Origin: Bdellovibrionales bacterium
Lineage (GTDB): Bacteria; Bdellovibrionota; Bdellovibrionia; Bdellovibrionales; JAGQZY01
Reading direction: 5' to 3'
Length of the DNA: 64,000 nt
Assembly (NCBI GenBank): GCA_031426555.1
Contig: JANPLN010000030.1
Coordinates: forward strand, 87,792-151,791
This document shows, piece by piece, positions 18,988 through 34,039 of this stretch. Both the position numbers and the translations under genes were made by a program. A model generated the notes under the pieces. The model worked only from the letters and a program-made list of their open reading frames with translations. It made no database searches and was not told the origin of the DNA. Numbering within the stretch: the first letter of the stretch is position 1; each line of letters begins with the position of its first letter.

Positions 18988-20373
18988 TTGAAAGCAAAAG
19001 ACTTTAGCTCCCTTCCCTTGTCGCAGTCCCTGTTAAAACTGATCGCTGAAATGGGTTTTTTGGAAATGACACCCATCCAAGCGGCAAGTATTCCTTTGCT
19101 GCTGTCGGGAAAAGATCTTGTGGGTCAATCGCAAACGGGCAGCGGAAAAACTGCCGCGTTTATCATACCAATTCTGGAAAAAATTAAAGTCAGCGATCTC
19201 TTCGCCCAGGCATTGATTTTGTGTCCAACGCGGGAACTGTGTGATCAGGTCTTGCGCGAATGCCGCAAATTTTCCAAGGCGTTCCCCGGTGTACAGACGG
19301 TGGCGCTTGTGGGTGGGCAGCCGTACCCGCAGCAGCTTCAGGCCCTCGAGCGCGGCGCCCAACTGATCGTTGGAACTCCGGGGCGAACCTTAGAGCATCT
19401 CAACGAACGAAATGCACAGTTGGATCGCCTTAAAATATTTGTGCTCGACGAAGCCGATCGCATGTTGGAAGAGGGCTTTACCGACGAGCTCACAGCCATT
19501 ATCGACCAGTTGCCCAAAGACCGACAAACCGTGTTTTTTTCGGCAACGTTTCCCGAAGGCGTGGAAGTACTTTCGGATCGCTATCAAAAAAACGCCGAGC
19601 GAGTTACCATTGAACAAAGTTTGTTAAACACACCGCAAATCGAACAGTATGTTTACGCCAGCGAAAACCCCGAAAAAGGAGAAACTCTTTTCAAAATTCT
19701 AAAAAGTCATCCGTCTCAGTGCACGTTAATCTTTTGTCGGATGAAAACCGCGGTGGCGCAAATAGGCCAGCAGCTGGCAAAACACAAAGTGAGCTGTGGG
19801 GTTTTGCACGGAGATCTCGAACAGGTGGAGCGCGATCGAGTGACAACTTTGTTTCGCAATGGAAGCCTGCGAGTTTTAGTTGCCACCGATGTGGCGGCCC
19901 GGGGCTTGGACATTGATACTTTAGAACTTGTCGTAAACATGGATATGCCTTCGAGCACAGAGATCTACGTGCATCGCATTGGCCGCACTGGCCGAGCCGG
20001 TCGCAAAGGCACAGCGGTGTCTATTGCCACTGAGTATGAAGTTCCGATGGTGGCCGAGATCGAAGAGCTGACGGGTGTAAAGATGCGCCGTCAGGCTTTG
20101 AGCGAAAATAGCGACTTCCCTGAAGAAATGCAGAGATCCCTCACACGCACGCTTTATATTTCGGGCGGCAAGGGCAACAAGCTTCGACCGGGAGATATTT
20201 TAGGAACTTTGACGGCGGAGCCAAATGCCATCGCCGGAAAAGACGTGGGTAAGATCGAGGTGCACGATCGCTTCAGTTATGTAGCCATCAAATCCTCTGA
20301 CGTCGACAGAGCTCTGGCAAAGTTGCAAAGCTCAAAAATCAAAGGATCTAAATTTAAAGTGCACTTACTGTAA
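18988..20373 (+). CDS. dbpA: DEAD-box RNA helicase DbpA
   Basis: QTGSGKT, PTREL, DEADRML, FSAT, HRIGRTGRAG, C-terminal KLRPGDILGTL RNA-binding domain. Confidence 0.92.
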   Translation: MKAKDFSSLPLSQSLLKLIAEMGFLEMTPIQAASIPLLLSGKDLVGQSQTGSGKTAAFIIPILEKIKVSDLFAQALILCPTRELCDQVLRECRKFSKAFPGVQTVALVGGQPYPQQLQALERGAQLIVGTPGRTLEHLNERNAQLDRLKIFVLDEADRMLEEGFTDELTAIIDQLPKDRQTVFFSATFPEGVEVLSDRYQKNAERVTIEQSLLNTPQIEQYVYASENPEKGETLFKILKSHPSQCTLIFCRMKTAVAQIGQQLAKHKVSCGVLHGDLEQVERDRVTTLFRNGSLRVLVATDVAARGLDIDTLELVVNMDMPSSTEIYVHRIGRTGRAGRKGTAVSIATEYEVPMVAEIEELTGVKMRRQALSENSDFPEEMQRSLTRTLYISGGKGNKLRPGDILGTLTAEPNAIAGKDVGKIEVHDRFSYVAIKSSDVDRALAKLQSSKIKGSKFKVHLL

Positions 20374-23300
20374 CTTTGTTTCCTTTGTAGTGCTTTCATG
20401 ACTCACGTTCATCAGATTGTCTTTGGAGTTTCGATCAATCAAAACATTCAGAGGATCTATTCCAGCCTTAAAAGGCTCCTCTTTGACCACAATTTCAAAT
20501 TTGTTTTCACCAGTTTTAATCGTATGTTTTTTAAGATAAATGTACTTTTCATCTTTACCAAGGATGCCCACATCCATCGCTTGGGAAAACTCTTTATTTT
20601 CCTCTTTTCCTTCTTTGTCTGAATAGACTTTTTCAGAAGAAATATTCATACTCACTTTAAAAGTGCCATCCGACAGCTTTTCCACTTGCGCCGTGAGCGG
20701 TCGATTTTCAAAAATCACAATTTTTTCCATCAAATCTGTGACCAGGGCCTTTTGATCGTCTGTGGCTTTACTTTTGACCACGTTTAAGAAATCGATGGAG
20801 GTCATATAAGGAGGTGCCATCCGTGAGTACTTGCCAAGGGTTTCCTTGAGAGCGCCATTAAAAGTGTCCTCGCCCATGTAATCTTTAATGGAATACAAAA
20901 CCACACTGCCTTTCCGATAATGAAGATACTGTTGGGATTCCGCCAGATATAGCGGATTCTCGTACTCAGTCTCTTTGCTGCGCCCAAATAAATAACGGTC
21001 CAATTCGTATTGTAAAAACTTTTTCATCTTTTCACGGCCGTACTCGTGCTCCATAACCATAAGGGCAGAATATTGCGAAAGTGATTCGGAAAGCATGTCG
21101 GCACCCTGCACATTGGCTCCCATCATCTGATGGGGCCACCACTGGTGAGCCAGCTCATGGGCCGTGATATAAAAAGGGTAGTCAATATCGTCTTCTTTAG
21201 AATCATCCACTTTGGCAATAAAACCAACTCCTTCAGAAAAGGGAATGGTATTAGGAAAAGACTGTGCAAAGGTTTCGTAGCGTGGAAACTCAATGATGCG
21301 ATACTGTTTGTGCTGGTAGGGTCCAAAGTTTTTTGTAAAATAATCTAAGGATTTTTTGGTGGCGTTCACCATTCTATGCAGATTGTACTCGTGCCCTTTG
21401 TGATAATAAATCTCGATATTCACATCGTTCCACGTGTCGCGAAGGACTTCATAACGTCCCGACAAAAACGCATAAAAATTAATAATTTTTTGATCCATCT
21501 TGTAATGAAAGTAACGGCGACTTCCCTCGGTCCATTCTTTTTGCAAGTAGCCCGGCGCGATAGCTATTTGATCTGCTGTTGTGCTGACGATGGTTTCAAA
21601 ATCAATCCAATAGCCGTTAACGCCGAGGAGCGAATTTTGCCATTGATCTTTGTCGTCGATGGCGGGCTTACGTAATTTGGGTGGAAGCCCGCGCTTTTCG
21701 CGAGCTTTGCGCTCGCCGAGCTCGGAAGACGATTGATATCCAAACGACGGAAAATAATCGAAGTTATTAAAAAAAGTGCCGTTGTAATGAATTTTCCCGA
21801 TGTTGGTACCGTTTTTAATAGTGGATTCATCCACGGTGACGGCATAGTCGCCCTCAAAATCTTGATTGGGCTGGATAGGCTGCGCAAACGTATAGACAAC
21901 CACTTTTAAGCGATCGTCTCTTTTTTCTATTGTAGGTATCGAGAACGAAAGTGACCAATCGGCGTCGGGGACGCTAATGAGTACATCATTGATCGCTTGC
22001 TGTGTGGTATTTTTGAACTTGATTTTTAGTTTCGCACGAACTTTTAATTGTTCTGGAAAAATATCTACGTTGGCAAAAACGGAGGTCAATTGAGCCACGG
22101 GGCGCTTATCGAATATTTTGTACTGTTTTTCGTAATCGTAAGATCGTTTTTCGGCTTCTTTACGAGAGATATACTCGTTGACGACATTATTTTGATAGAA
22201 AAGATAAGAACCCAAGACTAAAAAACCAAGGATTGAGGTTGCTAAAGCAGTTTTGAGCGGAGGAGTCAGGATGGCTCTTAACGGAGTTCGCATTTTTTTT
22301 AAAGATGTAGCTTCCGTTCCTCGATGCCAGAGGGCATAGGAAATAATGACGAGCACAGCGGATAAAAACAGCCAGTAAAAATTATAAAGGTGAAATATTC
22401 TAAACAAGTGACCAAAGCCATTCATGTCGGAATACATAGGGAAAGGCTTTTTGTTAAACAGATACAAATAGTGCTCAAAACCAAGGGCCTCGGCGAAGAT
22501 ATCAATAAGATAATAAATAACGATCATGCCGTGGGCGAGATATTTATTTTTAAAGACAACCTGAAAAAAGAACGTTAGCGCAATAAGATTGACGTAACTT
22601 GGCAATTCCACCAAATACAAACGAACCAAATACTGCGTAAGCTCGAAGTTGGTGTAGCCATAGGCCAGTTGGATGGCGATTCCTGAAAACAGAACAGCGG
22701 TTAACAATAAAATGGTGACGAGAACCATATTGATAAATTTTGCAGCAAAAATCACCCCATTAGGTGTGGGCAAAGCATCAATGATTTGATTAATTTTTAG
22801 ATCGCGGTCGCGCCAAACAGTCTCCCCCGTGTAAAGAGTAATAACAATAAGTACAAAAAGTGAAAATGTTCCACCAATAAAATCGAGCACGTTGTATGTA
22901 ACCGGGTAGGCGTTGGTGCCAAACATTTTTCCAACCTGTGTGCCGGTGATAAACATGTAACCCACGCCAGCTAGCACGATAACGACAAAGTAAATACTTT
23001 TGACAGTTTGCAAGAATTCAAAGGAAAGCTGCTTCAGCAGCAAGGGGGCCCATTTGATATTTTTTAAATCCAGAGCACGCAGAGGATTTATTGATCGAGC
23101 CTGGAGAGGCTCGGCGATAACGGCGTCTGCCTTGCGAGTTTTTGCTTTTTTCGCTGTCTTCGAAAAATTAATGAGCGTTGTGGCAAGTGCGGCAAAGCCT
23201 ATACCCAGCCACAAGACGCGATTCCATAAGAAGTAACTTTCAAAAGAGATAGATTGTTGATTTTGTTGATAAACAGTCCAATAGCGGATGGTTTCCGAAA

Positions 23301-23973
23301 TGGCGCGAAGACCTAGGGGATCCATCAATGTGCGCAACCATTTGTTGTCGAGATCGTCTAAGAGCTGTCCCGAAGAGGACCACAGCAGAAACAAGAGCGT
23401 GACAGCGATGTAAATCGGCGCCATTTTTTTGGTTCGAGAACCTATGAAAAAGAAGATAGAACCAAAAATAAAGATGTTTGGCAGTGCAACGGTGAGCAGG
23501 GGAAGTAAATAACCCTTAAGGGTGTTCACGCCGAGCATAGATGGAAGAACAAAAGGGAGTTTGCTCGCAACAAAGACACCCAGGGGAATGCTTGAGAGAA
23601 CGAAGAGCATAAACAACAGGGCGCCAATAAATCGCCCGATCAAAAAATGTTTTACTTTTAGCGGAGTCGAGAAAATAATTTGGTCGATGTTGTTGATAAA
23701 ATCTTTGCAGATGGCCTGTCCAAAAACGGGTGCGATAATAAAAAGATTGAAAGCCGTGAGCAGTGCCACGTAAAGAGTAATGCTCATGGGTGAGTTCACG
23801 AAAACCCGAGCCCCGGTTCCAAAGTTGATTGAAGCTCCGGGAATGGCTCCGCCGGCCGCAAGAGTCATCAACACGGATAGCGCAAAAAACATAACGAAGT
23901 AGATGTAACTCGACATGGAACGATAGCGGATTTTTAGCTCAAAAGCGATATTTGCAATAATGGCTGTTATCAT
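20365..23973 (-). CDS. ABC-2 type permease fused to an M1 family aminopeptidase
   Basis: Two multi-TM permease repeats in the N-terminal ~590 aa; FAQSFPNTIPFSE; HELAH-x18-E; YRKGSVV. Confidence 0.9.
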   Translation of the reverse strand: MITAIIANIAFELKIRYRSMSSYIYFVMFFALSVLMTLAAGGAIPGASINFGTGARVFVNSPMSITLYVALLTAFNLFIIAPVFGQAICKDFINNIDQIIFSTPLKVKHFLIGRFIGALLFMLFVLSSIPLGVFVASKLPFVLPSMLGVNTLKGYLLPLLTVALPNIFIFGSIFFFIGSRTKKMAPIYIAVTLLFLLWSSSGQLLDDLDNKWLRTLMDPLGLRAISETIRYWTVYQQNQQSISFESYFLWNRVLWLGIGFAALATTLINFSKTAKKAKTRKADAVIAEPLQARSINPLRALDLKNIKWAPLLLKQLSFEFLQTVKSIYFVVIVLAGVGYMFITGTQVGKMFGTNAYPVTYNVLDFIGGTFSLFVLIVITLYTGETVWRDRDLKINQIIDALPTPNGVIFAAKFINMVLVTILLLTAVLFSGIAIQLAYGYTNFELTQYLVRLYLVELPSYVNLIALTFFFQVVFKNKYLAHGMIVIYYLIDIFAEALGFEHYLYLFNKKPFPMYSDMNGFGHLFRIFHLYNFYWLFLSAVLVIISYALWHRGTEATSLKKMRTPLRAILTPPLKTALATSILGFLVLGSYLFYQNNVVNEYISRKEAEKRSYDYEKQYKIFDKRPVAQLTSVFANVDIFPEQLKVRAKLKIKFKNTTQQAINDVLISVPDADWSLSFSIPTIEKRDDRLKVVVYTFAQPIQPNQDFEGDYAVTVDESTIKNGTNIGKIHYNGTFFNNFDYFPSFGYQSSSELGERKAREKRGLPPKLRKPAIDDKDQWQNSLLGVNGYWIDFETIVSTTADQIAIAPGYLQKEWTEGSRRYFHYKMDQKIINFYAFLSGRYEVLRDTWNDVNIEIYYHKGHEYNLHRMVNATKKSLDYFTKNFGPYQHKQYRIIEFPRYETFAQSFPNTIPFSEGVGFIAKVDDSKEDDIDYPFYITAHELAHQWWPHQMMGANVQGADMLSESLSQYSALMVMEHEYGREKMKKFLQYELDRYLFGRSKETEYENPLYLAESQQYLHYRKGSVVLYSIKDYMGEDTFNGALKETLGKYSRMAPPYMTSIDFLNVVKSKATDDQKALVTDLMEKIVIFENRPLTAQVEKLSDGTFKVSMNISSEKVYSDKEGKEENKEFSQAMDVGILGKDEKYIYLKKHTIKTGENKFEIVVKEEPFKAGIDPLNVLIDRNSKDNLMNVSHESTTKETKLQ

Positions 23974-24842
23974 TTTACAAATCCCTTGATGTGAGCAAAG
24001 TAATAGTCTTCCAGACTGGCTTCTGCGCGATCAAAGTTTTCGGGGGCCACCGTCGAATAAACCTTTACGATAATTTTCCCGGCTGAAAAACGGGAATTGA
24101 TCACTTGGTACTGCGTTTCGATTGCGGGAACAGATTGTTTCTCAACGATGCGCGACCACACCTTTCCTTCGATATCTTTGAGGGCTTTTTCGGGTGTGGT
24201 TTGCACAAGCACTTTGCCATTATTGATAATTGCAAAATTCTGGCAGAGATCGGCCACATCGCTGACAATGTGAGTGGATAGAATCACGGTCACATCGGAA
24301 CCGATTTCGCTGAGGATATTATAAAAACGCAGACGCTCTTCTGGATCCAAGCCCGCCGTGGGTTCGTCCACGATCAGAAGCTGCGGCTGAGCAATGAGGG
24401 CCTGGGCAATACCAAAGCGTTGTTTCATGCCACCGGAGTAAGTATTGACCGATTTATTTTTGTGTTGCGAAAGATTTGTGAGCTCTAAAAAATGCAGGAC
24501 ACGTTCTTTACGTTGTTGGGGGTCGGTAATTCCTTTCAGCGTGGCGATGTAGTCCAAGAGATCAGTTGCTGAAATTTTAGGATACACGCCAAATTCCTGG
24601 GGCAAATAGCCTAAAACTTTTCGCAGATCTTCTTCTTGCGTCAAGGCGTCTAGATTTTGAAATTGAATGGAACCGGTGTCGGGGGCTTGCAAGGTGGCGA
24701 TGGTGCGCATAAGGGATGATTTTCCAGCCCCGTTTGGTCCAAGGAGGCCAAACATTCCCTTGGGAATTTGCAGATGGATGTTTTGCAGTGCGCGAACACC
24801 ATTGTCGTAGGTTTTACTAACGTTTTCGATCGTTAAGCTCAT
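23970..24842 (-). CDS. ABC transporter ATP-binding protein
   Basis: GPNGAGKS, YSGGMKQR, IVDEPTAGLDP, STH; ATGA overlap with the permease-peptidase. Confidence 0.95.
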   Translation of the reverse strand: MSLTIENVSKTYDNGVRALQNIHLQIPKGMFGLLGPNGAGKSSLMRTIATLQAPDTGSIQFQNLDALTQEEDLRKVLGYLPQEFGVYPKISATDLLDYIATLKGITDPQQRKERVLHFLELTNLSQHKNKSVNTYSGGMKQRFGIAQALIAQPQLLIVDEPTAGLDPEERLRFYNILSEIGSDVTVILSTHIVSDVADLCQNFAIINNGKVLVQTTPEKALKDIEGKVWSRIVEKQSVPAIETQYQVINSRFSAGKIIVKVYSTVAPENFDRAEASLEDYYFAHIKGFVK

Positions 24843-24908: not shown

Positions 24909-25715
24909 TTACCTGTGAAGGTGAAAGATGCGCTCTTCGGGGAACATTTCCAAGCGAGAGTAATCGGCAAGCATGGCGTTTTCGAACTTTGAAATGCTCT
25001 GCCTGTACAGGCCAAAATATTTAATCATATCAATCATCCAAATGGGCACTTTTGTGGTGGATTTTAGCTCCAGGATCACCATGCTCTGCGTGTCCTCGAA
25101 GGAGGCTGTGTGGTCATAGTGTTGAAGCAGCTGGTCGTTGGGGATCACATTCCAGTCTGTCTCGTGCTGAAAACGCATGTCTCTGTCGAAGGTCACTCGG
25201 GCGTAGTCGTCGACGGTGGAAATATAGGCTTTGCGGCGATATTGTGTTAAAACTTTCGGGCGCGTATTCAGGCGATAGCGCCAGTATAAAAATTCATTCA
25301 CGGCGCCTTGCGATTTTTCATCAATCACAATCTCGCCTTCGAGGATTTTATCAATGTAGAGTCTGAGATCAGTTTCAAAAACTTTTCCGCGAATTTTTCG
25401 AACGACGTCATTGCTCTTCTTCTTAACTTCGAAAAAATACGGAGGTTTCGGGTGCGTTCCATAGGAACGGATTCGCAAATTAAAACGGTTGGCCTGCGAA
25501 AGTTGTTTATAATTAAAAATCTTAAAGTCGTCCGAGTCGAAATAAAGCGAGTTGATCGTGTAAAAGTGATCGGCCTCGAGCTGCGAATAATAGTCCATTT
25601 CGCAATACATCTCTACATACTGCGAAATCGGCGCCACGAGGTCCAAGGGAACCAGATATTTAAGCTCGTAGCGTTCAAGAATTAGCGGCGAAACTGCATC
25701 GACCGTTGGGATCAT
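24909..25715 (-). CDS. VTC-domain (polyphosphate polymerase domain) protein
   Basis: RYELKY, YTINSLYFDS, RFNLRIRSYG, FEVKKK, YRRKAY, RVTFD, ILELK, ISKF. Confidence 0.9.
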   Translation of the reverse strand: MIPTVDAVSPLILERYELKYLVPLDLVAPISQYVEMYCEMDYYSQLEADHFYTINSLYFDSDDFKIFNYKQLSQANRFNLRIRSYGTHPKPPYFFEVKKKSNDVVRKIRGKVFETDLRLYIDKILEGEIVIDEKSQGAVNEFLYWRYRLNTRPKVLTQYRRKAYISTVDDYARVTFDRDMRFQHETDWNVIPNDQLLQHYDHTASFEDTQSMVILELKSTTKVPIWMIDMIKYFGLYRQSISKFENAMLADYSRLEMFPEERIFHLHR

Positions 25716-26923
25716 AAAAGTCCATTCTGGTGAAAGAGAAACGACGACTGAAAGTCTTGGCTTTCGTTGAGCCATTCGGTATAGGACAAAAACAAATCCC
25801 GTTCAGATTCAACGCTGGAAATTTTGGCAGTGAGGTAATCCGCATAAAGTGCGATGGTTGAAATGGGCTCGGAGGCTTTGAGGCGTTTGAAAGTTTTTTC
25901 GATTTGCAGGTCGTATTTGGAAGTGACGTCCAAGTCGAGATCATTGGCCATGCGGATGATTTTGTTGCGAAGCGTGTAGACCTGAACCTTTTTTTCGTTT
26001 TTGTCTAAAAGGCTCTGGCGCTTGGTTTCGATGATTTTGTTCTCAAACTGCCAATCCTGAACCGGGTTCGAGGAGAGAAAAGGCATATTCACGGACACGC
26101 GAAATGTCATCTGCGTTTGATTCTCTCGAGTTTTATCCACCCCAACGCTAAACGTATCGATGAGTCGGTTGTTTTGCGAGGCGGTGTAGGCTTTTAAATA
26201 TTCGAGCTGTTGCAGTTGTAGATCGAAAAGCTGAGTGTATAGTTTTTCGCGGGCGGGGTCGTAACTTTTTACATGTTCCAAAACTTTCACGCGACTCAGA
26301 AGGTTCTCGTCAGCCTTAAATCCGTCGATGGTCCAGTCCGGGTTGATGTTGGCAATGCGTTGCTCAATCTCGGCGCGCTTATCGTGAATCTCGATCACTT
26401 TCTTGCGAAAGTTTTTTATCGCAATGCTCGACTTGATAAAGTCTTTAATGCTGCCGCTTTCCACGCTCAGCAAGGACTTGGACTGGGCTCGTTTTTGCGC
26501 TTCTAAGATAGCGATGGTTTTTTTAGATAGATCTTCAATTTTTTTCGTGTACATGATTTCGATACACAAAAGCAAAAACTCAAGCTGGTCTTGTTGATCC
26601 CACAATATATTTTGTTGCTCAGCGATCAGTTTACTGGTGGAAGCAATACGCTGTTGAGCGATCGCCTCTCGCCCACCACGAGGATTGAACTTGAGAAAGT
26701 ATTCATACCCAGCGCGGTCGTCTTTGCCGGCTTTAACATCGCGGCCATCATCTTTTTCGACAACAAGCTGAATTTGACTAAATCCCATTTCTAAAAAATT
26801 GCCACCTTCGAAGGGTTTTAAGCGAAGATCCTCTTTTTTTTTCTCTAGCAAATCCTGCAGAGTCCATCCATGGCTCAGGGGAGCAAAGGAGGTTATTAAA
26901 AGAATGAGGACCAGACGTTTCAT
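25712..26923 (-). CDS. Secreted alpha-helical protein, divergent TolC/outer-membrane-factor-like
   Basis: Signal peptide; two repeats of a beta-hairpin (e.g. FSVGVD...MTFRVSVNMPF) followed by long helices; ATGA-coupled to the adaptor and VTC genes. Confidence 0.55.
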   Translation of the reverse strand: MKRLVLILLITSFAPLSHGWTLQDLLEKKKEDLRLKPFEGGNFLEMGFSQIQLVVEKDDGRDVKAGKDDRAGYEYFLKFNPRGGREAIAQQRIASTSKLIAEQQNILWDQQDQLEFLLLCIEIMYTKKIEDLSKKTIAILEAQKRAQSKSLLSVESGSIKDFIKSSIAIKNFRKKVIEIHDKRAEIEQRIANINPDWTIDGFKADENLLSRVKVLEHVKSYDPAREKLYTQLFDLQLQQLEYLKAYTASQNNRLIDTFSVGVDKTRENQTQMTFRVSVNMPFLSSNPVQDWQFENKIIETKRQSLLDKNEKKVQVYTLRNKIIRMANDLDLDVTSKYDLQIEKTFKRLKASEPISTIALYADYLTAKISSVESERDLFLSYTEWLNESQDFQSSFLFHQNGLL

Positions 26924-27858
26924 TGTTTGGGCTCTAGATTGGAGGCAGAGGTTGCAGGATTGAGCGATGTTTTTGGTACCGGCAGCAGTTCGTCGGGGAT
27001 CCAAGATTTAGGGTAGATCACAACTTTTTCGCCCATCAAAAACGTATTAGTTTCGGTCAGTTGAACAAGGACTTCGCGACCCCAAACCTTGATGAGCGAT
27101 GAGTTGGTTAACCGCTCTGGCATTTCGACGATGCGCGAGCCAATACTGATCACCCGGCCTGAGAATTTTTTGCGTTTGTCGGCGATGGACGCCAATCTTA
27201 GCTCTTGATTCATTTCGACCTGTGAATAGACGTTTTCGTGAATGTAGGCTTTGATCATGTCGGGTTTTTGCGAAAGGATTGAAAGCAAAGTTGTAAATGG
27301 CGGAACTGTTTGGCCACTTTTAAAATTCACAGCGCCAACGATTCCGCTTTTTTCGGCAAAGATCAAAAGATGATCTTTTTGCGATTGGGCGAATTCCAGT
27401 TCTCTTTTTGCACTTTCAATATCCAGGGACAGTGAGCTCCCTTTTGGAGAAATATCATTGATGGATTCATCCAGAAGATTCTTAATCTCGTTGCGCATAT
27501 TTTTTTCGAATTGAAGTTTTAGAAGAGTGGTTTCCATTTCGCGAATGCGAGCATCGATTTCGTTTTGGTTGAGTTCGGCGAGAAGAGTGCCTTTTTCAAC
27601 AAATTGGCCAGAGATCACATGAATGCGTTTAATTTTAACGGGATACTCAAAGTTGATAGATAGTTCGTAGGAGTCGGCAATGCCAAAAAAGCTCAAGCGA
27701 TTGGTGCTGCCGAGGGTGCTGACCAACGTGATCAACAGGACAGCGAACGCCCAAGCGATCAGGAGAGTTTTGTTGTCGCCTTCGATAAATTGCTGTTTAA
27801 ACTCTTTTAGACCCCATGGGCGTGAAATCCTGGATGCTCGCATCTGTTTAAACCTCAA
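26920..27858 (-). CDS. HlyD/membrane fusion (periplasmic adaptor) protein
   Basis: Single TM, IHVISGQFVEKGTLLAEL, coiled hairpin, IFAEKSGIVGAVNFKSGQTV, GRVISIG. Confidence 0.85.
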   Translation of the reverse strand: MRFKQMRASRISRPWGLKEFKQQFIEGDNKTLLIAWAFAVLLITLVSTLGSTNRLSFFGIADSYELSINFEYPVKIKRIHVISGQFVEKGTLLAELNQNEIDARIREMETTLLKLQFEKNMRNEIKNLLDESINDISPKGSSLSLDIESAKRELEFAQSQKDHLLIFAEKSGIVGAVNFKSGQTVPPFTTLLSILSQKPDMIKAYIHENVYSQVEMNQELRLASIADKRKKFSGRVISIGSRIVEMPERLTNSSLIKVWGREVLVQLTETNTFLMGEKVVIYPKSWIPDELLPVPKTSLNPATSASNLEPKQ

Positions 27859-28531
27859 TAGTGCTTTCCTGCATCAGCAGTTGGGCACCCTTTACTGTTG
27901 GAATCGTTCGAACGTCTTCGATCAGGTGGTCGAAACTGGATTGGGTGTGAAGCTTAAATTGATAGGCATAGTCAAAACGATTTCCCTGGGCCATTTCGCG
28001 AAGGGTGACCAGCGAAAACATTTTGCAATGCTTGTTGAGCGTTGTTTCGAGCTGTTCGCGCGAGTCTTTGCTGGGCTCGAAGTTAAAGCGCAAAAGGCCA
28101 TCAAACTGAGCAGGGGTTACAAACTCCACACGATCCAATACAAGCACACTGGCAATAAAACCCATGCAGCCGACGCAGGCGATGGCGTAAGAGTGCACGC
28201 CGCACGCCACACCCACGGCCATGGCGCCAAATAGAAAAAACATATCGCGCGGGTCTTTCAGGTTTGAACGAAAGCGTAGCAATGAAATCGCACCCATCAT
28301 CCCGAGGCCGCGAGCGAGGTTGTCGCCAATGGCCTGCATGGCGATTGTAGAAACGATCGGGCAAAGGACAAGAGCGTGGAGGAAATTTTTAGAATAGGAG
28401 AGGCCGCGGAAGGTGTAGTTGTAAATCAGTGCGATTCCAACCCCCAAAAGAAACGACAAACAAATACCATAAATAACAGCCCAAATTCCGGCGTTTTCAG
28501 TGGATGTTTGTAAAACTTGGAAATCTAGCAT
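27848..28531 (-). CDS. DUF4956 membrane protein
   Basis: IGDNLARGLGMMGAISLLRFRSNLKDPRD, FGAMAVGVACG; several TMs plus an ACT-like tail. Confidence 0.9.
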   Translation of the reverse strand: MLDFQVLQTSTENAGIWAVIYGICLSFLLGVGIALIYNYTFRGLSYSKNFLHALVLCPIVSTIAMQAIGDNLARGLGMMGAISLLRFRSNLKDPRDMFFLFGAMAVGVACGVHSYAIACVGCMGFIASVLVLDRVEFVTPAQFDGLLRFNFEPSKDSREQLETTLNKHCKMFSLVTLREMAQGNRFDYAYQFKLHTQSSFDHLIEDVRTIPTVKGAQLLMQESTIEV

Positions 28532-28622
28532 CGCTGAACTTATATGTTGATTGTTAAGACTTTGCTAAGATATCCCCTCGACCAAGTAATAAAAATAGAC
28601 CTGTCTAAAATCTACACACTCC

Positions 28623-30176
28623 TTAATTGAGATATGGGCGGGCTTGTTTTAAATAAACTTGGCGCGCGTCGGTGTCTTCGGCATCCACCTTGAATTCGAT
28701 ATCCAAAGAAAAATCAGAAGTCTCTGTTTTGCTCCCTAGAAGAGGGCGGAAGTGCTCAACCGCTTTCAAACACTGATACGAAAGATCTTTGGCTTCTTCG
28801 TCTGTCATCACGGCTGTTGGATTGTCTTGCGGAAGAATCGTTTCCATGTCGTTGGCAATGTTGGACTGCTGCAGAACATTCACAGTGTACTTGTCTTGAT
28901 TGAGGGGATCTTGCTTGTCGTAGAGAACAAGAATTTTTTGCGGGCGAATGCCGGGATTCGGGTTCGCAACACTATGGAAGTCGCCCCGCTGGGCTTCGAT
29001 GTAAACACCCTCGCCAGAAAGCATGGGAACATTGGCAATGTTCTTGGTGACCACAACACCATCTGCCAGCTCGTCGCCAAAGGAGGGGTTGATCTGAATT
29101 CCCATGTAAACATCTTGATGGGGAATGGAAAAGTAATTTCGCTCTTCGAAGGCGCGTAAATTCCAGATCGATCCCCAAACAATTTTGAGAGCCTCTGTGA
29201 GATTCGCGATTTTTTCTTCCTTGCTTAGATCTTTTTTCTTCTTCGTGGCTTTGTAAGCCGCCGACGTGTAAAGACCCGCACCATTAAAATTTGGAAGATC
29301 TTCGGAGTTTGTGGCACTGCGAAGCTTCATGTTGCGCTTCTTACCTTTTTTGTCAGTAATAGTATCAAAAAGTGCGAGCATGTTTTCGATGAGAACAGAA
29401 TCCACAACTGTTTGTGGCGACATAATCAGCGCATTGAGTTCGTTCAATTTAGTGGTGCGATATTCTGTGGCGGCTACGCGCTTCATGAGTGGATCGCGAG
29501 TCACTTTTTGAATCATTGTTTTTACTGCAGGATTACTTTCAACAAATTGACTATAGAAAGAAAATGGCAGCGCATACGAGTAACGAACTACAGTGCGCTC
29601 AGGAGTGTTGAGGGCCTTGGCGAGTTCGGCGTAGTTTGCGGCTTTGGAGCCAACTTTGTCGGCGAAAGTCCAATCCATTTCATCCATTGTTAAAATTCGG
29701 TCGATGGAGAGATCGTACTTCAATTCGACTTTTTGTTTCGCATTGCTATTGTAAAAAGCAAGAGCAGCTTCTTCTGTGCTCGGTGAAATCTTGATGGTAT
29801 CTGGAGCAATCAACTCCATTTCGATATAACTTCCGTCCTGGACGCCGTTAAAGATAGGATTATTAATCCCTCCTTCAAGCTGAGAAATATCCAAATTAGG
29901 AGTTTTGCGCGCGCTGGATTTAATTTGTACGTGCGACAGAAGATTTTGCTGCTGCAGCGTGATTACACCAGAAACCACAGACAGATTCATCGGCAGCTCG
30001 GCAAAAACCGGAATCGCCAGAGGATTCAGCGATTTGTATTTTGCGTTTTCAGAAAGCATATCTTGGGCCGACAAGATCACCAGTTGTCCAATAGCTTTTC
30101 CTGGGTTCATAACCATAGCCTGAGCAAAGCCGCTCAGAGAGTAAAAAAGCGTGAGTGTAAAAATTAAATTTTTCAT
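28623..30176 (-). CDS. Exported PEP-utiliser-type dikinase: His-phosphocarrier domain plus PPDK_N ATP-grasp domain
   Basis: Signal peptide MKNLIFTLTLFYSLSGFAQA; GVIT...LLSHVQIKSSARKTPN; VGSKAANYAEL; RSATNSEDLPNFNGAGLYTS; VWGSIW; DIEF...YLKQARP. Confidence 0.85.
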   Translation of the reverse strand: MKNLIFTLTLFYSLSGFAQAMVMNPGKAIGQLVILSAQDMLSENAKYKSLNPLAIPVFAELPMNLSVVSGVITLQQQNLLSHVQIKSSARKTPNLDISQLEGGINNPIFNGVQDGSYIEMELIAPDTIKISPSTEEAALAFYNSNAKQKVELKYDLSIDRILTMDEMDWTFADKVGSKAANYAELAKALNTPERTVVRYSYALPFSFYSQFVESNPAVKTMIQKVTRDPLMKRVAATEYRTTKLNELNALIMSPQTVVDSVLIENMLALFDTITDKKGKKRNMKLRSATNSEDLPNFNGAGLYTSAAYKATKKKKDLSKEEKIANLTEALKIVWGSIWNLRAFEERNYFSIPHQDVYMGIQINPSFGDELADGVVVTKNIANVPMLSGEGVYIEAQRGDFHSVANPNPGIRPQKILVLYDKQDPLNQDKYTVNVLQQSNIANDMETILPQDNPTAVMTDEEAKDLSYQCLKAVEHFRPLLGSKTETSDFSLDIEFKVDAEDTDARQVYLKQARPYLN

Positions 30177-30185
30177 AGAGACCAC

Positions 30186-31541
30186 CTATTTCGTCAAGCT
30201 CAACGCCGCTGTGTTGAGAGAGGAAGATTTAATTGTGTTATCAGTAAACATTTCAAGCTTTCCGTCCGGCGCGATGCTGATCCACTGCTCGAGACTGCCA
30301 GTAAAGGCCTCTTGCAAGGTCATCGTCGCTACTTCAATCACTTCTGGCATTGTCGCTTTGGCTTTTTCTAAAGATAAAAATTCACTTTGATAATAAAGCC
30401 AGTTGTCTTGAATCAGGAAGCCTTCGCTGTAGATCGTATTGAGCATCGCCTGATACGCAGCAACCGAAGTCACCGTCGACATTCGATTGATTTCCTTGTT
30501 GATAAACTGACAAGATTTGGCGATGAGCGCAAGTGCCGGAGCTTTCTTTTCCCAAGGAATCGACGCAACAATGTTAGTTTTTAGGTCAGCTGTCACGGAC
30601 GAGAGAGCGAGTAGATTCTCGGGATTTATTCCTTGAGCAGCAAACGTTTGCGCCGCAGCTTCCACAGAAATGACGCCAGCCTGTTTTGCTAGAGCTATGA
30701 GTGCCTCGGGTGTGAAGTTGTAATAGCGACGAAGCAACACAAGGATCCGTTGCAAATAATTGTGGCCGTCTTTTTCATACCAAGGATTTTCGCGAAGGAA
30801 TCTTTCGATGCGACCTATCACATCCTCGCTGAGCTGATTATGAATGGTATTGCGAATTTTATAAAGTTCCAGAACTCGGCTGTCTTTTGTCCCATAGGTC
30901 GCAGAAAAGAAGTCATACACCTGTGTGATAAGGTTGCGCGCTTCCGCCAGCTCCGAAGAATCCGCGATGGGGCTTTCTTTAGCGAGCAAAAAAGCTGGAA
31001 GAAATTGATAATCATCATTGATAGAGCTCATGTAAAAATTAAAAAAGTGAGCCGCAAATTTGATCTCGTACTCCATTCCACTGATTCCGCGCATCGCAAA
31101 AGATCTAGCGAGTTTGGAGTCTGGGTAGATTTCCACGTAATAGCGTTCGAGAACCCAGTTTTTAACCATTTCCACAGCTCGCGGCATAGCTGCATTGGCG
31201 ACTGCCGCTAAGGCTTCGTTGTCGATACCGTGATTTGTGCTCAACGCATTCCCATACACAAATTCGCTGTTGAGTTCGTAATAATTGGTTGTGAACAGGT
31301 TGCCAGTGTACATTCCATACTGATCAACGAGCACACGTGCTTGGGCGTTACGAAAAGCAGAGGTAAATAGGTGACCTTTTGGAAAGACATCGTAGGCAGT
31401 TTGGCCCTTAGGTCCCTGGCTCACGTTGGAGCCAAACGGACCCTTGTTCTTTTCGAGAATCGCTTGAAAGTCAGACTGAAGATCGGCGCTGGCTAAATTG
31501 GCGCTGAAGAGAAGTGGTAACAGAAGTACGAGCTTCATCAT
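30186..31541 (-). CDS. Hypothetical exported alpha-helical protein
   Basis: Signal peptide ending ASA; GGAG RBS; tightly packed between neighbours. Confidence 0.8.
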   Translation of the reverse strand: MMKLVLLLPLLFSANLASADLQSDFQAILEKNKGPFGSNVSQGPKGQTAYDVFPKGHLFTSAFRNAQARVLVDQYGMYTGNLFTTNYYELNSEFVYGNALSTNHGIDNEALAAVANAAMPRAVEMVKNWVLERYYVEIYPDSKLARSFAMRGISGMEYEIKFAAHFFNFYMSSINDDYQFLPAFLLAKESPIADSSELAEARNLITQVYDFFSATYGTKDSRVLELYKIRNTIHNQLSEDVIGRIERFLRENPWYEKDGHNYLQRILVLLRRYYNFTPEALIALAKQAGVISVEAAAQTFAAQGINPENLLALSSVTADLKTNIVASIPWEKKAPALALIAKSCQFINKEINRMSTVTSVAAYQAMLNTIYSEGFLIQDNWLYYQSEFLSLEKAKATMPEVIEVATMTLQEAFTGSLEQWISIAPDGKLEMFTDNTIKSSSLNTAALSLTK

Positions 31542-31543
31542 GA

Positions 31544-33310
31544 TTATCTCCCGCCTAAAACTTTATTTTTTTCTTGCTCAAAAGCAGCTTCGCCACAGGC
31601 GTTTTTGTCGCTGTCGGGTGCGCAACCACGCACGCGGCCCATCAGGCGAATACGAATTTTATCGATACCTCTTACGGCGTAAAACTGAACTTTGTCTTGT
31701 TCGTAAACCTGCTCGTAGAGGGGATATTGGCCTTGCATCGCATACGAAGTTTTTGTGATTTTCTTTTTGTAATCGAGGTAGGAGGGGAAAGAAACTTCGG
31801 GATTGTTGAAAACAAACGAATTGCCACGTTTTTCAAAAACATTTTTCGAGCCATACAGTCCTTTGTAATAAGCTTCGCGACTATCTGCACTCAGTAATAG
31901 GTCCGCACCCTCGCGTTTATCTAATCCGTTGGAGCCTTTTGTGTCATAGGTGATTTGATACTCAACTCCCATGACTTCCAGTTCACTATCTCCGTTAATA
32001 TCATAGAGGTCGAAATCTGCTGAGTTGTTACCAAAGAAGTAAACCTGTTTCATTTTTTCATTCTCGACCGGCATAACGTGTCGCATTTCCCACACGTGAC
32101 CGAGCGACAACCGCAAGCAACCGCTGGAGACGCCTCCGCGTTTGACAGCCCAAAGCTGGGTGTGGTCTTCAGGGGCGCTGAGCGCTTCTCTCGTAGCTTT
32201 TGAAAAATTACTACCGTTGAAACGAACAGCTGGATTGTGGAATCCATTATGGATTTCTTCGAAATCCATTTTTGGTGCCCATCCGTAGTAAGGTTCATCA
32301 CGGATGTTATCAACATTTCGATTGCTATGGGCGAGGAACGTCCAGAGGCCAGGTGTTGCAAATTTGGGAATGTCGTTGCCGAAATTATCGTTTGTGGTGC
32401 CCTTAAACGAACCTGTCGGGTAGATTGCCGTGTATTCAGGATAATTTAGGCTACAGGATCCTTGTACGCAGGAAATTGCAGACGCCCACTTTCCGTTTTG
32501 ATCGATGATTTTGATTTGATATTTTACCCCAGTGGCCATGGCAAAAAGCTCTGTGGCCTGCGGAGCGAACTGCTCTGAAGAGTTCGACGCGAGGGCCTGA
32601 GTGGCGGTGGCCTGCAATTTGGCAAGCAGTGCACTGTTCGGCTGCTCAGTGATATTCACACGTCCCCAAACCAAACTATTCAGGGCAATGACTGTTTCTT
32701 CGGCAGTGGCAGTGAAAACAGATTCTGGTCTGCGGCCGTCGAGGAGGGAGGCAACGATTGTTTGCCATCGAGCGTATTCTTTATTGAGATCCAGGTCGAT
32801 CATAAACACGCGACCTGGGTTAAGCGCGATGATTGTTTCTAAGCTTTTTTGATAAAGTTGCTCTGCGGAAAGAGTGTCCTGCACTGAATTTTGAATGTTG
32901 TACTGAGACGAATTTACGATTTGTGAGAAGAGGTCCATTTGTGGAGTGACATCGCCGTTGACGTTCACATTCACAGCGGGTCGACTGCCGCTGGTTGCTT
33001 CTTTGTAAAAGGTGTCGCGATAAACGAGGTCGTACATGTAGTCTTTGATGGTCTGTTCGTCGAGGATCACCGAAACGCGTGTTTGGTTTCCGCGAGCTGT
33101 GCGAATGTGAATTCGCGAAGGATATTCACTGCGTGGTGCGAAGCCTACGTAAAAGCTTGGGTAGTAGCTCTCGGTGGCATCATTGCCTGGGTTCCAGCTG
33201 GTTCCCCAAAAGGGAAGTTGCTTCGCGTAGTCCTGAATTGTTTGAATTTGAGCAGCTGAAGCGACGAGGACGGTGGCGATGAAAAACTTTTTTAAAAGGG
33301 AAAAAAACAT
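31544..33310 (-). CDS. Hypothetical exported protein with an L,D-transpeptidase-like motif
   Basis: GGAG RBS; signal peptide; GFHNP...RGGVSSGCLRL resembles the YkuD (S/T)HGC(I/V)R motif. Confidence 0.6.
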   Translation of the reverse strand: MFFSLLKKFFIATVLVASAAQIQTIQDYAKQLPFWGTSWNPGNDATESYYPSFYVGFAPRSEYPSRIHIRTARGNQTRVSVILDEQTIKDYMYDLVYRDTFYKEATSGSRPAVNVNVNGDVTPQMDLFSQIVNSSQYNIQNSVQDTLSAEQLYQKSLETIIALNPGRVFMIDLDLNKEYARWQTIVASLLDGRRPESVFTATAEETVIALNSLVWGRVNITEQPNSALLAKLQATATQALASNSSEQFAPQATELFAMATGVKYQIKIIDQNGKWASAISCVQGSCSLNYPEYTAIYPTGSFKGTTNDNFGNDIPKFATPGLWTFLAHSNRNVDNIRDEPYYGWAPKMDFEEIHNGFHNPAVRFNGSNFSKATREALSAPEDHTQLWAVKRGGVSSGCLRLSLGHVWEMRHVMPVENEKMKQVYFFGNNSADFDLYDINGDSELEVMGVEYQITYDTKGSNGLDKREGADLLLSADSREAYYKGLYGSKNVFEKRGNSFVFNNPEVSFPSYLDYKKKITKTSYAMQGQYPLYEQVYEQDKVQFYAVRGIDKIRIRLMGRVRGCAPDSDKNACGEAAFEQEKNKVLGGR

Positions 33311-33493: not shown

Positions 33494-34039
33494 TTAATAG
33501 ATATTTTGCTCGGTTTCGTCGGTGGCCGAAAGGTAAATATCAAAGCCTCGGGCCTTGGCCAGTTGCAAAAATTTTTGCGCGAAAGTCTCGGGGTGCATGG
33601 CATAGTAAATTTGTAATGCACTGAATGCACTCGTATATTGCTCCAGCACGTCGACCTTGAAGTACTCTTTACCCGTGGCATAGCCGAAATTAAAAAGCAG
33701 CTTGTTGGGGCAAGCGGCATTGTAGGCCGCATTGTCGAAGCGGTAACCGGCAAACTCGGCAAACACCGAGAACGCAGCTCCGGAGGCCCAGCTCGCCACG
33801 TCCATCAACTCCCAATAAGTGTGCTCGGGCACGTAGGGCTTTGGTTTGAGATTGTGTTTCTCGAAGCTGATGGCAAAGCTCACTAGTTTTTCGTGATCGA
33901 ATTTTTGTTCATTTTCCCAGCGTATGAGCAACTGAATTTGAGTTGGGTTTAATTGATAGGCACTAGACCAATGGTTCTCTGTGGCGAAGCCAGATGTCGA
34001 AACTAAAAGACACAAAACAAACGTGGAAAAATTTAGCAA
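33494..34039 (-). CDS. Hypothetical secreted protein
   Basis: TTG start after AGGGG; signal peptide ending GFA. Confidence 0.6.
   Translation of the reverse strand: MLNFSTFVLCLLVSTSGFATENHWSSAYQLNPTQIQLLIRWENEQKFDHEKLVSFAISFEKHNLKPKPYVPEHTYWELMDVASWASGAAFSVFAEFAGYRFDNAAYNAACPNKLLFNFGYATGKEYFKVDVLEQYTSAFSALQIYYAMHPETFAQKFLQLAKARGFDIYLSATDETEQNIY

Follow-up and report, generated by a model that had tools for sequence, protein, structure and literature searches.

The contig region analysed here, a 64,000-nucleotide stretch from a Bdellovibrionales bacterium (JANPLN010000030.1, positions 87,792 to 151,791) referred to as the window, carries on its minus strand three adjoining open reading frames encoding proteins of 588 (33310–31544), 451 (31541–30186) and 517 (30176–28623) amino acids, with intergenic gaps of 2 and 9 nucleotides. 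The last of these encodes a dikinase that starts at the ATG at 30176 and would be 520 residues long if an upstream GTG were used; the 451- and 588-residue proteins have no match in a Pfam scan. The 451- and 517-residue proteins very probably form a ‘split exported central-His-grasp dikinase’. A first annotation made from the letters alone (the original prediction) had proposed three Sec-type leaders, the 2- and 9-nucleotide gaps, a histidine ahead of the ATP-grasp and the lack of a pyruvate barrel, all of which are confirmed by the open reading frames, Pfam, the structure model and the leader rule described below.

The dikinase half (28623–30176, minus strand) is composed of a leader (residues 1–20), a swivel domain containing His82 (29931–29933) and a C-terminal ATP-grasp (residues 157–517). 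The LLSHV motif with His82 lies N-terminal to the PPDK_N domain that Pfam assigns to residues 173–514 (E = 2e-16). An AF2 model (predicted local distance difference test score, pLDDT, 92) shows a small β-rich His82 domain, a linker and the ATP-grasp, the best solved match of which is the ATP-grasp of rifampin phosphotransferase (RPH; Z score 29.5, root-mean-square deviation (r.m.s.d.) 2.6, 300 residues aligned), with HpeI as a second structural likeness (Z 23.1). The modelled chain stops at the ATP-grasp and contains no phosphoenolpyruvate (PEP)/pyruvate-binding barrel, which rules out a mis-annotated PEP synthase, and NCBIfam PEP-synthase models give 55 bits against cut-offs of at least 598. 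A homology search gave 408 relatives; the top 120 are 48–95% identical, and those with a name come from Bdellovibrionota. His82, K178, R286, E494, Q511 and R513 are unchanged throughout the 74 aligned dikinases, the dikinase motifs are present in 110–114 of 114 full-length homologues, and the ATP-grasp keeps intact nucleotide-binding motifs. An EDLxxFxGAGLY motif is common to the dikinase and to proteins like the plant starch-phosphorylating enzymes glucan, water dikinase (GWD) and phosphoglucan, water dikinase (PWD), whereas PEP synthase and RPH differ there. The His region of the pooled profile A6 aligns with the swivel histidine of PEP synthase (8a8e, E = 2e-4), PF00391 is passed by fused relatives (many of the 48 profile matches scanned), and GWD1_pHisD is weakly matched by some homologues. 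PF22973 is matched neither by the window dikinase nor elsewhere in its genome, its homologues matching weakly; a single-sequence search of the PDB with the dikinase gave no match, and profile A2 against the PDB gave nothing useful.

All three proteins are predicted to be exported through Sec-type leaders. The home-made and lenient rule used (a hydrophobic core, an n-region that is not net negative and a small-x-small site) was passed by 110 of 114 full-length dikinase homologues, in support of the signal-peptide-bearing dikinase proposed at first, by 103 of 103 full-length homologues of the 451-residue protein and by 104 of 113 of the 588-residue protein. None of 14 VTC proteins and none of 11 cytoplasmic GWD/PWD-like proteins passed as controls; genome-wide, 497 of 1,294 long open reading frames did, and the rule is permissive, because the window’s VTC frame, when listed with an upstream start, passed too. 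Alignment A1 shows a variable leader (mean top-residue frequency 0.38 for positions 2–19), with conservation beginning at the predicted mature end (0.75 for positions 21–40). Leaders arising by chance were ruled out by their conservation across the families.

The 451-residue protein (30186–31541, minus strand), with its conserved R230-N-x-x-H234 and D434-N-x-x-K438 motifs, is by sequence comparison the missing N-terminal half of the dikinase, the domain preceding the His swivel, because natural single-chain fusions of the two exist. Among the genomic loci sampled (the best 80 of 591 confirmed), a domain of this type is present in 16, as a separate gene in 6 and fused ahead of the His domain in 10, the hosts of the fused form being Chromatiales and other Gammaproteobacteria, Bacteriovoracaceae and Bdellovibrionaceae. 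The fused form also occurs in 3 genomes of a phylum sample of 301 Bdellovibrionota genomes, 10 of which have the split operon and 291 do not. A profile run against 1.84 billion proteins produced 157 matches, and all 55 of the listed ones longer than 880 residues carry the dikinase module. Across the window genes and the fusions the order is central domain, phospho-His domain, ATP-grasp, as in GWD. The original prediction had taken the 451-residue protein for a third, acceptor domain and had named fused homologues as the check; such fusions were found, and a remote link to the GWD/PWD central domain points the same way. An LXG match to profile A5 (E = 3e-4) was taken as helical noise, and an Atlas look-up for a 451-residue homologue gave no usable match. 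In 56 of the 80 loci (within L014–L080) exported His-grasp dikinases from Bacteroidota, Myxococcota, Fibrobacter, Planctomycetota and Verrucomicrobia carry another N-terminal domain type of about 200 residues, which in HHalign scores below 1% against both the 451-residue domain and GWD/PWD. An exported dikinase type of about 980 residues, with the grasp mid-chain and a C-terminal extension, is found in G258:C61 (L127:6700–9660), G068 and G150.

GWD and PWD, overlooked at first, provide the nearest known architecture. Potato GWD, as described in PMC13553574, has an all-helical central domain (residues 483–926, 444 residues) followed by His992 and, last, the ATP domain, with E900, E901 and R904 facing His992 and proposed for transfer. 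Bacterial GWD/PWD orthologues from another phylum, Planctomycetota, where 6 of 201 genomes have them, served as proxies, the GWD-like proxy matching the potato central domain 9HA9 with E = 8e-71. In HHalign comparisons the 451-residue profile matches 42 distant fused N-terminal halves at 99.8% over 394 columns, and these in turn match bacterial PWD-like central domains at 86% (E = 5e-6) and GWD-like ones at 56% (E = 1e-4); 54 pooled fused halves give 96% and 90%, respectively, and all 55 controls (24 shuffled or reversed, 31 from unrelated families) stay below 1%. The transitive alignment places R-N-x-x-H234 over the KLH motif and D434-x-x-x-K438 over the EE-x-x-R of GWD-like proteins; D434 and K438 are nearly invariant in the 451-residue family, and the fused family reads DD-x-x-R. 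The 451-residue protein is thus a likely remote homologue of the GWD/PWD central domain at the level of profiles, and is not called a GWD member because it has no carbohydrate-binding module (CBM): Pfam finds no N-terminal starch-binding module (CBM45 or CBM20), and both halves are fully covered by leader and domain. Tandem bacterial GWD-like and PWD-like genes, leaderless and of about 1,170 codons each, are present at L177:3440–10505, L178, L179 and L180 (G485, G538, G521 and G465).

The window system shares with GWD1 and PWD the order of central domain, His swivel and C-terminal ATP-grasp, an SH[VI] His motif and the GAGLY motif; going by the transitive profile link, it probably also has their helical central domain of about 440 residues, with an acidic/basic pair closing it. 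It differs in its Sec-type leaders, its division over two genes, the lack of CBM45 and CBM20, the lack of significant direct similarity in the 451-residue half, and its partners, which are YkuD-fold and SxxK proteins. RPH and the split HpeHI, CreHI and PpsAB systems resemble it in the ATP-grasp fold (Z 29.5 and 23.1) and phospho-His swivel, and offer a precedent for splitting; they are, however, cytoplasmic, ordered ATP–substrate–His and cut between the grasp and the substrate-plus-His part, whereas the window system keeps the histidine with, and N-terminal to, the grasp and has its acceptor domain separate. With profiles A5 and A6, the match to RPH is confined to the grasp. PEP synthase and PPDK have the same PPDK_N grasp and PF00391-type His domain, but the window dikinase has no PEP/pyruvate barrel, a permuted order and an NCBIfam score of 55 against 598 bits.

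The 588-residue exported protein (31544–33310, minus strand), left unexplained by the original prediction, is predicted to have a YkuD, or L,D-transpeptidase-type, fold with large insertions, with His358 (32237–32239) and Cys398 (32117–32119) as candidate catalytic residues. In a wide structural search (VIA) with its AF2 model (pLDDT 95), the top 16 of 50 rows are all YkuD-fold, led by 4xvo (Z 7.3, r.m.s.d. 2.5, 111 residues aligned) and including L,D-transpeptidases, Csd6, Pgp2, Bd1075 and DpaA, and the first unrelated row stands at 4.7. Foldseek returned only noise for this model, and the Atlas feature lead to YkuD, at 0.79–0.85, is under the Atlas bar of 0.9. All 121 sequences compared have H358, S395, G397, C398 and R400; among 120 homologues, 93 read HGCxR, 19 SGCxR (including the pattern of the window), 4 RGCxR and 4 none of these. 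The window protein does not reach the PF03734 cut-off, and the same region links the family to weaker relatives, 4 of 10 of which pass it. Compared with YkuD L,D-transpeptidases and carboxypeptidases (LdtMt2, Ldtfm, Csd6, Pgp2, Bd1075, DpaA), the protein shares the predicted core fold and the His...GC-x-R residues, and differs in that about 111 of its 588 residues align, in a long helical insertion, in the wider His–Cys spacing and in lying below Pfam detection. A strong match is present in 14 of the 301 phylum genomes, beside the 451-residue and dikinase genes in all 14. A further exported YkuD-like family of 390–660 residues, some members at the PF03734 cut-off and unlinked to dikinases, is present in Bdellovibrionota (L156–L164).

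A fourth gene, also missed at first, encodes an exported Beta-lactamase2-family protein with SxxK, SxN and KTG motifs. It flanks 8 of the 80 loci and, in a set overlapping these, 9 of 9 other split operons, up- or downstream and on either strand; outside those it occurs in one further genome of the 301, and it was found neither in the window’s genome nor in four fused carriers. Comparison with the same-genus genome G258 (blastn, L117) shows two 90%-identical blocks joined over a 1,019-nucleotide gap at the dikinase stop codon, the missing sequence being exactly the convergent SxxK (penicillin-binding protein/β-lactamase-like) gene. The 91-nucleotide spacer downstream of the dikinase (28532–28622) therefore contains the junction of a deletion of about 1,019 nucleotides, the rest belonging to the DUF4956 block as its own upstream sequence; in G258 this block and the SxxK gene are divergently oriented. 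The short distance noted in the original prediction is a product of that deletion. Misassembly was ruled out by a contig from the probable source run that spans the junction, though this contig is probably from the source sample itself. Neither a sigma-70 site nor a terminator was seen in the spacer, which is uninformative.

Beyond the spacer lies a separate four-gene block, also on the minus strand. Its first gene, starting 91 nucleotides past the dikinase end, encodes a DUF4956 membrane protein (27848–28531; PF16316, E = 7e-15) and is followed by genes for a HlyD/CusB-type membrane-fusion (adaptor) protein (26920–27858; Pfam HlyD_D23, NCBIfam RND_mfp below cut-off), for an exported protein of about 400 residues and no family (25712–27004; no Pfam match), which from its position, conserved in other blocks, might be guessed to act as an outer-membrane factor, and for a VTC-domain, polyphosphate-polymerase-like protein (24909–25775; PF09359, E = 6e-46). 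Of the 301 genomes, 54 have the VTC domain; these comprise 9 of the 10 split-operon genomes and 45 of the remaining 291. It adjoins the operon in five of the ten (the window, G258, G217, G222 and G282), in three arrangements and three families, lies about 9 kb away in G158 and elsewhere in the genome in three more; adjacency by chance would be expected in about 0.6% of cases per genome. Within the host’s own family, VTC accompanies the operon in all three genomes that carry it, and the other four genomes lack both. The link to the VTC/DUF4956 block proposed in the original prediction thus stands as a co-occurrence, but VTC was not found in G291, which has the split operon, in 3 of 3 close fused Bdellovibrionota carriers or in 7 of 7 gammaproteobacterial fused carriers (incomplete metagenome-assembled genomes), and 16 of 19 genomes of one genus have VTC without the operon. 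A check of 50 of the 80 dikinase-family genomes (all 18 of the close type and 32 chosen others) found VTC in 32, and of the 80 loci a single one includes VTC.

Most of the 20 VTC regions inspected show the block by itself, and 3 have it beside the secreted kinase CotH, a grouping noted for pel clusters, with no function given, in 10.1101/768473. The CotH–VTC–DUF4956 arrangement resembles that of the window in placing VTC/DUF4956 beside an exported phosphotransferase; in the window that enzyme is instead a dikinase, and the block is larger by an adaptor and an exported protein. The window’s genome has a second VTC and DUF4956 pair (G000:C62:50881–52313), with no adaptor genes nearby. An exported protein of about 1,100 residues and no family adjoins the VTC block in three f19-family genomes (L135:12058–15510, L136:8212–11529 and L138:8666–11995); its candidacy as a kinase, made by eye only, was dropped as it matched neither CotH (0.55%) nor Pfam.

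A sister family of fused dikinases of about 975 residues was sampled in 80 metagenome loci and 4 genomes, 83 of which were scored (L187:2255–8832 and related; L265–L268). In its loci the dikinase is accompanied by one or two exported SxxK proteins and by a TLC/NTT ATP/ADP-translocase-like protein (NTT-HEAT in Bacteroidota): SxxK genes flank 64 of 83, and the NTT-like gene is present in 43 of 83, including 35 of the 41 with at least 3.5 kb of downstream sequence. VTC is adjacent in none of the 83. NTT-like genes are found in 83 of the 301 phylum genomes and are rare across the host’s whole order, so that the complementarity of NTT and VTC may reflect lineage history. Usable ATP is thought to be scarce outside the cytoplasm. 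A review (PMC7432876) reports ATP in the periplasm of E. coli and knows of no route for it across the inner membrane; for free-living bacteria, the function of NTT proteins is given as not known in PMC5381601. A class B acid phosphatase lipoprotein-like gene is present in 9 sister-family loci.

The reading we favour, which stops somewhat short of being probable, is that a GWD/PWD-type dikinase exported in two halves moves phosphate from ATP to an envelope glycan, likely peptidoglycan, beside a partner with an L,D-transpeptidase fold. By homology, both dikinase halves and the 588-residue protein would leave the cytoplasm through their conserved Sec-type leaders, and, as the fusions show, the 451-residue protein is the domain ahead of the His swivel. 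Following GWD and RPH chemistry, the β-phosphate of grasp-bound ATP would be transferred to His82 with release of AMP and Pi; the His domain would then swing to the 451-residue half, in which D434 and K438 are placed where GWD has E900 and R904, and the phosphate would pass from His82 to a glycan hydroxyl. The neighbouring genes point to a wall glycan or muropeptide as acceptor, the stems of which the YkuD-fold cysteine enzyme may cut, exchange or hold; in relatives the SxxK enzyme, lost from the window’s genome, may do likewise. The preference for peptidoglycan comes from the two conserved partners, whose folds are ones that work on its peptide stems. Donor supply may differ by clade, with an NTT-like gene in the fused sister family and the VTC/DUF4956 block in most split-operon genomes. 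The more specific proposal that a dedicated extracytoplasmic, starch-kinase-homologous dikinase phosphorylates peptidoglycan with an L,D-transpeptidase-fold enzyme and is fuelled by interchangeable modules, either an ATP/ADP translocase or a VTC/DUF4956 polyphosphate polymerase-exporter, is rather unlikely as a whole.

Several observations weigh against phosphorylation of peptidoglycan by a GWD/PWD-type enzyme. The direct HHalign comparison of the 451-residue profile with GWD and PWD is not significant (1.1% and 0.2%), the distant fused set that bridges them was itself picked by that profile, and profiles A5 and A6 fail to find 9HA9, which is in the searched library. The YkuD match, at Z 7.3, is below the tool’s caution line of 8, and the His–Cys spacing is 37–41 residues, with SSGC rather than SHGC in the window protein; the canonical YkuD motif is H-x14-17-[ST]HGC. 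The 588-residue gene is missing in 3 of 16 loci that have the 451-residue domain and upstream sequence (L039, L041 and L042), and in all 83 of the sister-family loci scored. Neither a carbohydrate-binding module nor a glycoside hydrolase is linked to the operon, the acceptor being deduced from the neighbours, and a search of the window’s genome and of the 14 carriers found no NTT-like gene, leaving the ATP source here unexplained. With its SxxK gene lost, the window’s copy of the operon may be partly decayed.

The same enzyme might instead draw on polyphosphate that the VTC/DUF4956/adaptor block synthesises and exports, directly or through extracytoplasmic regeneration of ATP; a polyphosphate donor was the idea of the original prediction. 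The enrichment of VTC in split-operon genomes, its adjacency or proximity in six of them, its joint presence or absence with the operon in the host’s family, the complementary distribution of NTT (none in the 14 carriers) and VTC, and the grouping with CotH all favour this donor. Against it, the adjacency is a deletion product, VTC was not found in the fused carriers named above and the grasp retains its nucleotide-binding motifs; moreover, the block stands alone in most genomes, the kin compared are not independent, and the polyphosphate of a streptococcal VTC protein is predicted to stay cytoplasmic in 10.1101/2024.04.20.589940. We consider a polyphosphate donor unlikely. As regards the acceptor, the sole characterised enzymes with the same order and central domain phosphorylate glucans, which would suit an extracytoplasmic α- or β-glucan (periplasmic glucan, environmental starch or prey glycogen) loosened as GWD loosens starch; this seems decidedly unlikely given that Pfam finds no carbohydrate-binding module, that the conserved neighbours of 451-residue-type loci include neither glycoside hydrolases nor sugar transporters, and that the conserved partners have peptidase folds.

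Two further accounts, each with little probability, concern the role of the system as a whole. An RPH-like periplasmic kinase could detoxify or modify small molecules, with the SxxK and YkuD-fold proteins, which belong to folds acylated by β-lactams, binding or hydrolysing β-lactam-like compounds. The patchy distribution (10 of 301) and the structural proximity of the grasp to RPH and HpeI would fit, but the domain order and third domain are unlike those of RPH, and the SxxK alignment has no visible equivalent of the class A residue Glu166. Split small-molecule dikinases do exist (HpeHI, PMC12167813), but the ATP domain of GWD itself aligns best with RPH, according to 10.64898/2026.02.06.704335. 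It is similarly improbable that the genes form a secreted effector set with which a predator would draw on prey ATP to mark the wall of its prey or remodel it. In favour, Bdellovibrionota have the split form, one homologue of the 451-residue protein is labelled as coming from a Bdellovibrio bacteriovorus strain, and no NTT-like gene was found that could provide the system’s own ATP; against this, near relatives with the same partners live in Chromatiales and other Gammaproteobacteria, so that prey ATP, put forward earlier as an alternative donor, cannot be general, and the best-sampled genus of the host’s order has the operon in 0 of 19 genomes.

The locus is best described as a known kind of enzyme inside an undescribed envelope system. 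The open-access literature searched gave no account of such an exported dikinase, although the supplement of a GWD homologue survey could bear on the point; the features that appear to be new are the division into two genes, the partner of YkuD fold, the link by profiles to the central domain of GWD, the SxxK deletion and the association with VTC. If the acceptor is peptidoglycan, the reaction would be a new wall modification. The system makes three questions testable with purified proteins: the route of a donor to the periplasm and the role of NTT in free-living bacteria, as raised in PMC7432876 and PMC5381601, respectively, and the purpose of bacterial VTC/DUF4956 blocks.

Two other features flank these genes in the window. 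Downstream of the VTC block, a 1,202-residue fusion of an ABC-2 membrane protein and an M1 peptidase is encoded together with its ABC ATPase (20365–24842, minus strand). Upstream of the operon lies a gene for an exported 181-residue protein of no family (33494–34039, minus strand), which among the loci examined is kept only in G258.

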